Virus record (IMG/VR): IMGVR_UViG_2802429248_000002
Source: a virus
Lineage: Duplodnaviria > Heunggongvirae > Uroviricota > Caudoviricetes
Strand: one strand, 5' to 3'
Length of the DNA: 41,518 nucleotides
Each line of letters begins with the position of its first letter. The stretch's first letter is position 1. This document shows positions 38,661-39,603 of the stretch, one piece after another. The notes below the pieces were generated by a model. The model worked only from the letters and a program-made list of their open reading frames with translations, did not search any database and was not told the origin of the DNA. A program made the translations under genes and the position numbers.

Positions 38661-38960
38661 GTGAGAAAGTTAAGCCGACTTGAAAAATATCACATGAACA
38701 AGGTTTCAATGCGCAGCCCTTCAAAGGTTGTTGCCGTTACTCCTGCAGCGATAGAGATCGAAAAACGCGCAATTGAAAGAGAGAAAAAAGGGCAGTTCCG
38801 CATTGCCGCCCACCTTTGGCTTCAGTGTATGGATGTTGCTTCTGGTGATGTTGAGCGTGCAAGGATCGCGGTTCGCAGGGACCAATGTATCACAAAAGGT
38901 AACGGCCTTCGCCGTGGCGACTATAGCGGCATAGGATGTTGTGGGGTGGTTTATGACTAA
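38661..38960 (+). CDS. PerC-like transcriptional activator family protein (putative)
   Basis: GTG start with GAGGG upstream (alternative ATG at 38694). Segment AIEIEKRAIEREKKGQFRIAAHLWLQCMDVA resembles the Pch/PerC core (..LE.KGLWRRAA..WL..) from memory. Confidence 0.45.
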   Translation: MRKLSRLEKYHMNKVSMRSPSKVVAVTPAAIEIEKRAIEREKKGQFRIAAHLWLQCMDVASGDVERARIAVRRDQCITKGNGLRRGDYSGIGCCGVVYD

Positions 38961-39603
38961 GAAATACACACTAATCTATGCAGATCCACCCTGGGTATAC
39001 CGGGACAAAGCAGCAGATGGTAATCGCGGTGCCGGTTTTAAATATCCGGTTATGAGTGTGCTGGATATCTGCCGCCTTCCTGTGTGGGATTTGGCCGATG
39101 AAAACTGTCTGTTGGCCATGTGGTGGGTGCCAACACAACCACTCGAAGCACTAAAAGTTGTTGAAGCCTGGGGATTCCGTCTGATGACCATGAAGGGCTT
39201 CACGTGGATAAAATGTGGTAGTCGACAACCAGATAAACTGGTTATGGGTATGGGACACATGACTCGCGCCAATAGTGAAGATTGCCTGTTTGCAGTAAAG
39301 GGAAAACTACCTCCACGCATTAATGCAGGGATCGTTCAGTCATTTACCGCACCGCGGCTTGAGCATTCAAGAAAACCAGATGTCGTTCGTGAAAAACTTG
39401 TGCAATTGTTAGGCGATGTTTCTCGCATTGAACTGTTCGCCCGCCAGACGTCTCATGGCTTCGATGTTTGGGGTAATCAGTGCGAAGACCCGGCAGTGCA
39501 ACTACACCCTGGATACGCGTTGGATATTGGCGGATTAACAAATGCATTCAGCAATGCTCCGCTGTCACCAACAGACAACCAAGGGCGGGAGCGTGCAGCA
39601 TGA
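38953..39603 (+). CDS. MT-A70-family DNA N6-adenine methyltransferase
   Basis: Start taken at MTKKYT (ATG 38953); catalytic motif DPPW (IYADPPWVY); 216 aa; stop overlaps the phosphatase start (ATGA). Confidence 0.75.

Follow-up and report, generated by a model that had tools for sequence, protein, structure and literature searches.

The whole stretch of phage DNA analysed here (IMG/VR record IMGVR_UViG_2802429248_000002, 41,518 nucleotides (nt); hereafter the window) carries an MT-A70 adenine methyltransferase gene whose stop codon overlaps the start codon of a NinI/lambda-type protein phosphatase gene. Sequence comparison makes it likely that two independent accessory cassettes were set side by side at this site by a single recombination event. 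The overlap would then be an ordinary mosaic junction and not the sign of a coordinated system. Both genes come from well-populated families, and their overlap would come from the way in which phage operons are put together rather than from a common function. The window represents a Uetakevirus (phiV10/epsilon15-like) genome, of a phage or a prophage. Its bases 1227-25000 are 96-97% identical to phages phiV10, HEMP4 and phiv142-3, and positions 38300-40300 align end to end with phages vB_EcoP_PAS61 and BP9 at 98.4% DNA identity.

Unrelated genes follow the same stop/start overlap

The phosphatase ATG lies at 39600-39602, so the ATGA at 39600-39603 is common to both genes. Phage phiV10 (NC_007804) has the same operon order, the same PerC-like gene and a methyltransferase (p33) that is 98% identical to that of the window, with the same ATGA at its stop codon. 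There, however, the ATGA overlaps an unrelated DUF1382 gene of 64 amino acids (aa; p32), whereas the slot in the window is taken by the 219-aa phosphatase. The two genomes agree through GCAGCATGAA and show no relationship beyond it until they become similar again in the convergent integrase gene (int), some 15 nt in from its 3' end. The int product is 99% identical in the two phages. From the break at the ATGA and the return in int we conclude that the phosphatase gene (657 nt) precisely replaces the DUF1382 gene (192 nt), or the reverse. Where the window has GGGAG (39587-39591), phiV10 has AGGAG.

Among the 80 closest IMG/VR contigs, the ATGA is kept in 79. It is then followed by DUF1382 in 44, by the phosphatase in 18 and by at least six other sequences in the rest, and at least eight different genes follow it in this set. 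In phage PA8, too, the methyltransferase is followed by DUF1382, as in phiV10. Species-level loci, with one genome taken per other species, were also compared: in 24 of these 39 a downstream open reading frame (ORF) of at least 45 codons begins 4 nt before the methyltransferase stop (15 ATGA, 4 GTGA and 5 TTGA). The 24 ORFs encode 53-747 aa and are of unrelated kinds, among them RusA resolvases, LexA-like proteins and a C5-cytosine methyltransferase, as read from the sequences without a family-library scan. The C-terminal tails of the methyltransferase homologues are otherwise variable, but endings in ERAA-stop or AA-stop recur, since both the GGGAG element and the ATG lie in the last methyltransferase codons.

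Overlapping genes are found throughout the operon that ends with the phosphatase gene. It consists of eight co-oriented genes (36282-40259), and six of its seven junctions overlap by 4-8 nt (four by ATGA, one by GTGA and one by ATGACTAA). The ATGA junctions are positioned at 36593, 37411, 38548 and 39600, and three of them have the form GCNGCATGA (Ala-Ala-stop/Met). Since the whole operon is built by overlaps, the one between methyltransferase and phosphatase is not evidence of a shared function.

The distant alleles of the phosphatase gene (79% DNA identity) are NinI/Ppp of the lambdoid phages HK225 and phi80, positioned beside ninE. In HK225 the NinE-NinI junction reads ..TCAGCATGAGC, and NinI is ATGA-coupled to NinE with no methyltransferase involved. 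The lambdoid NinI therefore begins at an ATGA overlap with the preceding gene, as the window phosphatase does. The locations differ: the window phosphatase is at the end of the early-left operon beside int of a podovirus, while the lambda gene is in the nin region, with the replication genes on one side and Q on the other. The sequence CAGCATGA is common to the window junction, the phiV10 methyltransferase-DUF1382 junction and the HK225 NinE-NinI junction. It is plausible that these 8 nt served as the microhomology for an in-register transfer, a step that we infer from the three sequences. At a conserved stop/start junction of the form GCNGCATGA, unrelated cassettes thus appear to be exchanged in register between the lambdoid nin region and the podovirus early operon.

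We propose the following sequence of events. The site would be the end of the early-left operon, in which recombination genes, AlpA, a small membrane protein, the PerC-like gene and the methyltransferase are followed by a variable slot. The methyltransferase 3' end (..GGGAGCGTGCAGCATGA) would supply a ribosome-binding site and a start codon to whatever follows, and would in this way act as a docking point. The usual occupant of the slot, the 64-aa DUF1382 gene, would have given way precisely to a phosphatase gene of the NinI type that came from the nin region of a lambdoid phage. In that region the donor gene would follow ninE, across the same CAGCATGA junction. Phosphatase synthesis probably depends on ribosomes finishing the methyltransferase, which would be a general operon design with no bearing on shared function. 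The phosphatase itself would act separately, as a Mn-dependent Ser/Thr/Tyr/His phosphatase on host phosphoproteins.

Distribution of the methyltransferase-phosphatase pairing

In a survey of 5,426 complete E. coli genomes, the methyltransferase 3' end of the window was found in 617. The methyltransferase-phosphatase junction is present in 144 of these, and in about 470 further genomes the 3' end is followed by DUF1382 or other genes. The phosphatase allele, searched at 95% identity or above, gave 146 records, approximately the number of genomes with the junction. This agreement points to a single acquisition: an allele that is essentially restricted to a single phage lineage, in about 145 E. 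coli genomes, fits one capture followed by clonal spread.

Outside this lineage, the phosphatase is adjacent to the methyltransferase in none of 40 other species and within 3.5 kb of it in one of the 40. It is also absent from all 80 contigs of a second (BZS1-type) methyltransferase clade. These surveys gave no sign of an adjacency conserved across divergent lineages or of a second acquisition. The sole other species-level locus with both gene types is from Ewingella sp. (L019, 3049-5654), in which a 49%-identical NinI-like phosphatase lies 860 nt downstream of the methyltransferase on the same strand. A NinB-like gene, named from reading the sequence without a family scan, abuts the MT-A70 methyltransferase there, and this upstream neighbour suggests a nin-type region holding both cassettes.

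The gene order itself is already known, as it is annotated in PAS61, BP9 and about 145 E. coli genomes. PAS61 (OQ921333) and BP9 (PP488543) have the identical methyltransferase-phosphatase-integrase order, with the first two genes annotated as adenine methyltransferase and NinI phosphatase. The papers on PAS61 and ZX5 contain no discussion of the methyltransferase or phosphatase genes.

The methyltransferase and phosphatase proteins

The methyltransferase ORF extends from ATG 38953 to the TGA at 39601-39603 and encodes 216 aa. We assigned the start to this ATG and not to the upstream GTG 38941 because homologues begin with MTKKY or MNKKY. The protein is assigned to the beta class of N6-adenine methyltransferases: the whole Pfam MT-A70 model (PF05063, positions 1-172 of 172) matches it with E=5.8e-22 and 78.9 bits, the cut-off being 23.9 bits, and its DPPW motif (D11-P12-P13-W14) is invariant or nearly so in 23-33 homologues. 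The catalytic core covers approximately residues 1-187, and the C-terminal tail (188-216) is variable and predicted to lack order. The AlphaFold model has a mean predicted local distance difference test score (pLDDT) of 78 and a predicted template modelling score (pTM) of 0.78; residues 202-216 score below 50 and are predicted to be disordered. As modelled, the enzyme is a minimal MT-A70 catalytic domain without a separate target-recognition domain. Foldseek placed METTL3 (E=8e-13, template modelling (TM) score 0.68-0.72) and Tetrahymena MTA1 (5e-12) as the best matches of the model, and by sequence the closest solved relative is MTA1, a DNA N6-methyladenine (6mA) enzyme (4e-13), ahead of METTL3 (4e-6). 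METTL3-METTL14 and the Tetrahymena MTA1c complex (MTA1-MTA9-p1-p2) have the catalytic fold and DPPW in common with the window enzyme, at 17-25% sequence identity. However, they are obligate heterodimers with an inactive MT-A70 paralogue and nucleic-acid-binding subunits, whereas the window phage has one MT-A70 protein.

Within the MT-A70 family, M.EcoGV and M.EcoPA8orf6770P stand in the same enterobacterial phage clade as the window enzyme, with 83% identity between the latter and M.EcoPA8orf6770P over residues 1-187. The family is widespread in Enterobacterales prophages: we collected 2,238 homologous proteins at E≤1e-5, each representing a cluster at 90% identity. Their loci are positioned either near an integrase gene, as in the window, or among lambdoid replication or nin-region-like genes, where the labels NinB-, RusA- and DnaC-like come from reading the sequences by eye without a family scan.

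A preliminary description of this DNA, made from its sequence alone, had reported an orphan DPPW-motif MT-A70 methyltransferase at 38953-39603, no adjacent restriction endonuclease and an ATGA overlap with a calcineurin-like Ser/Thr phosphatase. All of this was borne out. The neighbours, identified with Pfam and PHROG, are the PerC-like gene, the membrane protein, AlpA-like, RecT and PDDEXK exonuclease genes, the phosphatase and the convergent integrase, with no restriction endonuclease among them. With no restriction enzyme gene nearby, the methyltransferase is an orphan. A defence or anti-defence assignment was considered and rejected: at this locus PADLOC recognised only a generic Type II methyltransferase and was silent on the phosphatase and the PerC-like protein.

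The phosphatase (39600-40259, 219 aa) matches Pfam Metallophos (1.2e-15) and PHROG 246, 'NinI-like serine-threonine phosphatase' (9e-108). Its alignment with lambda phosphatase (PDB 1G5B) covers residues 1-217 at 67% identity without gaps (E=6.7e-100). The GDxHG, GDxVDRG and GNHE motifs are kept, and D20, H22, D49, R53, N75, H76, H139, R162 and H186, which we take to be the metal and catalytic residues of 1G5B, are all identical. The best NCBIfam models are of the E. coli PrpA/PrpB type, below their equivalog cut-offs; lambda phosphatase (NinI/ORF221) is of the same size as the window protein. The gene is by its sequence a standard NinI/lambda phosphatase homologue, a PPP-type metallophosphoesterase predicted to be Mn-dependent. 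Lambda phosphatase is a Mn-dependent Ser/Thr/Tyr/His phosphatase, and its natural substrates are, to our knowledge, not established. In the literature we found no defined role for NinI-type phosphatases in phage biology. A paper on 'phage phosphatases counter aRES', considered for such a role, concerns an unrelated Macro-domain enzyme.

Conflicting activities of related methyltransferases

A large share of Shiga-toxin-producing E. coli (STEC) carries a methyltransferase of this MT-A70 clade, and the activities published for it disagree: GATC methylation of DNA on the one hand and, on the other, a methylation of 16S rRNA that raises Shiga-toxin phage induction. When PhiBZS1_p32 of Serratia phage vB_SspM_BZS1 was over-expressed by itself in dam- E. 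coli, plasmid DNA became resistant to MboI and sensitive to DpnI, the signature of GATC methylation, and this happened without the ANR neighbour of p32 (PMC7556043). The window enzyme is 40% identical to p32, from which it differs by missing an insertion of about 23 residues. PhiBZS1_p32 and M.EfaBMDam of Tn1549 resemble it in several respects, being orphan MT-A70 enzymes of about 220 aa with DPPW, located near an integrase and preceded by a small ANR-family gene. Those two are GATC-specific DNA methyltransferases, a specificity which we infer for the window enzyme. M.EcoGV, described in PMC10810198 as highly similar to the PA8 enzyme, is listed as GATC-specific.

The PA8 enzyme itself, M.EcoPA8orf6770P of a Shiga toxin (Stx) phage, acts only weakly on DNA in vitro, as shown by Gong, Chakraborty and Koudelka (2023, PMC10810198). 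It forms a 1:1 complex with its upstream gene product PNB-2 and then prefers 16S rRNA, and it was reported to raise spontaneous prophage induction (PMC10810198). The authors suggest that its C-terminal residues (about 27) are needed for the interaction with PNB-2, and the 16S rRNA claim rests on S-adenosylmethionine (SAM)-consumption assays, with no mapped base (PMC10810198). The stretch in which this enzyme and that of the window are 83% identical includes DPPW; both genes are near the prophage integrase end and both are overlapped by a small upstream gene. They differ in the last 29 or so residues, which are unrelated, as the alignment ends at residue 187. The upstream gene encodes PNB-2 in one case and the PerC/ANR-like protein in the other, the gene that follows is DUF1382 in PA8 and the phosphatase in the window, and PA8 is a Stx lambdoid phage while the window is a Uetakevirus. 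M.EcoGII, a non-specific prophage methyltransferase, was set aside as a relative, with no sequence comparison made, because the close relatives found are the MT-A70 enzymes M.EcoPA8orf6770P and, according to PMC10810198, M.EcoGV.

Because bases 35000-41518 of the window gave no PNB-2 and the methyltransferase tail is unlike that of PA8 after residue 187, we favour a Dam-like activity. Methylation of GATC in phage and host DNA after induction or infection would be the most likely outcome, with a chance of about one half. Methylation of 16S rRNA instead or in addition, or redirection of the enzyme by a partner protein, seems possible but clearly less probable. The number of GATC sites in the window is uninformative on specificity (157 observed, against 161 expected from base composition and 217 from a Markov model). 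A GATC enzyme would bring little added protection against restriction where the host is Dam+. As a speculation, such an activity could keep rapidly replicating phage DNA fully methylated. Since the operon looks repressed and the host Dam would mask GATC, a lysogen may show no new methylated motif either way.

The PerC/ANR-like gene upstream of the methyltransferase

PerC/Pch and ANR proteins are reported to act on host regulators. A PerC/ANR-like gene is the most recurrent neighbour of this methyltransferase family, and in the window its last 8 nt, stop codon included, are shared with the start of the methyltransferase gene (ATGACTAA, 38953-38960). Besides its Pfam PerC match (Table 1), the protein matches NCBIfam ANR_neg_reg at 3.4e-5, below the cut-off, and hhalign aligned its profile with p33, the ANR protein preceding the BZS1 methyltransferase, at E=3.3e-5. 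It is predicted to be a small four-helix protein, for which Foldseek returned no significant match (best E=0.3, with MIT/TPR-like helices).

We searched the collected loci with a hidden Markov model (HMM) built from these PerC/ANR-like sequences. An upstream PerC/ANR-like ORF on the same strand was found in 13 of the 40 species-level loci, and 27 are without one. Six of the 13 abut the methyltransferase, in loci that have no Uetakevirus AlpA, RecT or window-type integrase; the other seven are one inserted unrelated gene away, in loci of Uetakevirus-like arrangement. A match was present in 78 of the 80 closest viral contigs. In the BZS1-type clade the gene abuts in 34 of 80 contigs and is one gene away in 18 more. 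The chance of six abutting genes out of 15, at about 11 gene positions per locus, is P ~0.001 by a naive binomial, which is indicative only, as the loci are not independent.

The PerC/ANR-like gene also overlaps the methyltransferase start in loci L020, L022, L024, L025, L029, L042 and L124, and these overlapping pairs span methyltransferase clades that are only 40% identical, in different phage contexts. Three of these loci (L020, L022 and L024) encode a longer protein of 147-170 aa, with the PerC-like part as its C-terminal portion and an N-terminal part that is winged-helix-like by eye. Several fused or rearranged forms were seen among database proteins as well: P0003 is an in-frame PerC-methyltransferase fusion of 297 aa, in P0001 an internal deletion joins the PerC N-terminus to the methyltransferase, and in P0239 a DUF1382 Pfam domain occurs together with roughly half of the PerC-like protein (98% match), the methyltransferase being apparently deleted. 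Such fusions are rare and could be assembly errors. We found no comment on the PerC/ANR-methyltransferase linkage in the literature.

PNB-2 was considered as the upstream partner and rejected. The upstream protein of the window gave no BLASTP alignment with it and an hhalign probability of 0.05%, and a search that covered window bases 35000-41518 brought up no homologue of PNB-2. By analogy with BZS1 p32, which methylated GATC without its ANR neighbour, any partnership with the PerC/ANR-like protein would be regulatory or redirecting, not obligatory.

Alternative explanations of the locus

The preliminary description had gone further than the gene assignments and proposed that the methyltransferase guards phage DNA against host restriction and, together with the coupled phosphatase, forms a coordinated host-takeover pair. 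The two genes are indeed co-oriented and joined by ATGA in an apparently early operon, orphan phage methyltransferases are generally known to be often anti-restrictive, and 144 E. coli genomes, as well as 18 of the 80 closest viral contigs, retain the pairing. We nevertheless hold a coordinated pair to be very improbable. The same overlap serves at least eight other downstream genes, the pairing is limited to one lineage and is missing in the 40 other species and the 80 second-clade contigs, and the native phosphatase is ATGA-coupled to NinE without any methyltransferase. The anti-restriction role proved to be a generic assumption without support here: the relatives are either GATC-specific, which is redundant with Dam and adds little protection in a Dam+ host (PMC7556043), or are reported to act on 16S rRNA (PMC10810198). 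Some points do weigh against our own account of independent cassettes and a Dam-like enzyme. A single acquisition is compatible with synergy, and the pairing persisted in about a quarter of the lineage, which shows that it is at the least tolerated. There is dispute over the methyltransferase substrate, given that the closest characterised relative (83%) was weak on DNA in vitro and preferred 16S rRNA with PNB-2. The GATC evidence comes from over-expression, in one case of a 40%-identical enzyme, and in the other, M.EcoGV, it is second-hand. The operon promoter and the absence of an internal one depend on a consensus scan, which is weak evidence.

The remaining alternatives concern the upstream gene. 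The enzyme might be mainly an RNA methyltransferase like M.EcoPA8orf6770P, working as a heteromer in which the PerC/ANR-like product takes the place of PNB-2 as targeting subunit. The identity to the PA8 enzyme over the catalytic core, the 1:1 complex formed by that enzyme with its upstream product before it prefers 16S rRNA (PMC10810198), and the 8-nt overlap in the window are in line with this, as are the recurrence of ANR/PerC-like ORFs in two clades only 40% identical, the natural fusion in P0003 and the fact that all solved relatives work in heteromers. The PA8 and window types also have different C-terminal tails, along with different upstream genes. Still, neither BLASTP nor hhalign relates the PerC-like protein to PNB-2, GATC methylation by BZS1 p32 needed no ANR neighbour (PMC7556043), the rRNA claim has no mapped base (PMC10810198), 27 of 40 species-level loci have no such gene, and the fusions are rare while adjacency may be inherited synteny; we therefore find an RNA-directed heteromer rather unlikely. 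A little less probable still is a regulatory module in which the two proteins are linked by co-expression alone, one acting on host regulators and the other setting epigenetic marks. It agrees with the PerC and ANR family matches, with the predicted helical bundle, whose MIT/TPR-like character is typical of protein-binding modules and not of helix-turn-helix (HTH) DNA binders, and with the unrelated gene inserted between the two in seven related species, which indicates that direct abutment is not required. However, the Foldseek matches are not significant (E>0.3), and shared ancestry accounts for the linkage too. Similarly doubtful, in our estimate, is that the real partner of the methyltransferase is the PerC/ANR-like protein and not the phosphatase, binding the enzyme, possibly via the variable C-terminal tail, and setting or switching its target. 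Its role would resemble that of PNB-2, METTL14 or MTA9/p1/p2 for their catalytic subunits. We keep this reading open because the overlap recurs in clades 40% identical and in different phage contexts, together with rare in-frame fusions. If true, it would tie the PerC/Pch/ANR family of virulence regulators to N6-methyladenine (m6A) methylation of DNA or rRNA. The recurrent upstream gene is in any case a testable candidate for the factor that decides between the two published activities of the clade, and independent cassettes joined by one recombination event remain our preferred account of the methyltransferase-phosphatase junction.

The operon and the ends of the window

The features of the locus are collected in Table 1, with the eight operon genes in their order from orf104 to the phosphatase.

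Table 1. Positions of the genes and sequence elements discussed in the text, in window coordinates.
Feature	Position	Strand	Basis or remark
Glycine-zipper/TraT-like protein	1-516		
DUF5384 protein	532-1074		
PAPS-reductase domain protein, 335 aa	30905-31912	-	Pfam 1.7e-36
HTH repressor-like gene	35405-35989		lies before the terminator-like hairpin
Terminator-like hairpin	36010-36029		after the HTH repressor-like gene, precedes the promoter candidate
Sigma-70-like promoter candidate for the operon	36080-36108	+	consensus scan, 10/12 hexamer matches; weak evidence
orf104	36282-36596	+	upstream part of operon; ATGA-joined to next gene
PDDEXK/DUF3799 exonuclease	36593-37414	+	Pfam; ATGA-joined
RecT	37411-38292	+	Pfam; ATGA-joined to exonuclease
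AlpA-like excisionase/regulator, 69 aa	38342-38551	+	Pfam Phage_AlpA 2e-5; PHROG 66
Membrane protein, 38 aa	38548-38664	+	PHROG 17484 'membrane protein'; 97% identical to phiV10 p35
PerC/ANR-like small helical protein, 99 aa	38661-38960	+	Pfam PerC 6e-7
MT-A70 methyltransferase, 216 aa	38953-39603	+	Pfam PF05063 5.8e-22
GGGAG, Shine-Dalgarno-like element	39587-39591	+	in last methyltransferase codons (GRERAA-stop), 8 nt before ATG
ATGA stop/start overlap (methyltransferase TGA, phosphatase ATG)	39600-39603	+	read from sequence
NinI/lambda-phosphatase-type phosphatase, 219 aa	39600-40259	+	PDB 1G5B 6.7e-100; PHROG 246
Convergent P4-type tyrosine integrase	40262-41518	-	Pfam; 99% identical to phiV10 Int

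The operon has the look of an early operon under repression. As weak evidence, the scan for consensus sites found nothing promoter-like or terminator-like on the plus strand between the promoter candidate at 36080-36108 and position 40259. An internal promoter that would express the methyltransferase or the phosphatase in lysogens was considered and, by the same weak evidence, not found. The stop codon of the integrase gene is 2 nt past that of the convergent phosphatase gene.

The gene for the 38-aa membrane protein overlaps each of its neighbours by 4 nt. The AlpA-like protein has 69 aa in the window and 82 aa in PAS61 and phiV10, a difference that corresponds to a 13-codon in-frame deletion in the C-terminal tail. 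The exonuclease and RecT (36593-38292) are two ATGA-linked ORFs in the window and PAS61, while their phiV10 counterpart (L002, 1233-2993) is annotated as a single RecE-RecT fusion of 586 aa. The window RecT is 73% identical to that of phiV10, which indicates a different allele of the recombination module.

The window ends at 41518, exactly at the integrase start codon, and many IMG/VR prophage contigs with this locus (among loci L044-L106) have the same end point. Since so many contigs of the same locus stop there, the window is probably a contig from prophage prediction, without the int promoter and att site. At the other end, the first 1.2 kb or so (1-1226) has no match to phiV10-type phages and would be host flank or else cargo carried at the far end of the prophage. 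A glycine-zipper gene adjoins DUF1382 in one E. coli genome (hit H45). Some 1.1 kb downstream of the lambda-P-like and DnaT/HTH replication genes (33056-34653), and on their strand, is the gene for a phosphoadenosine phosphosulfate (PAPS)-reductase domain protein. It could be another gene related to nucleic acid modification.

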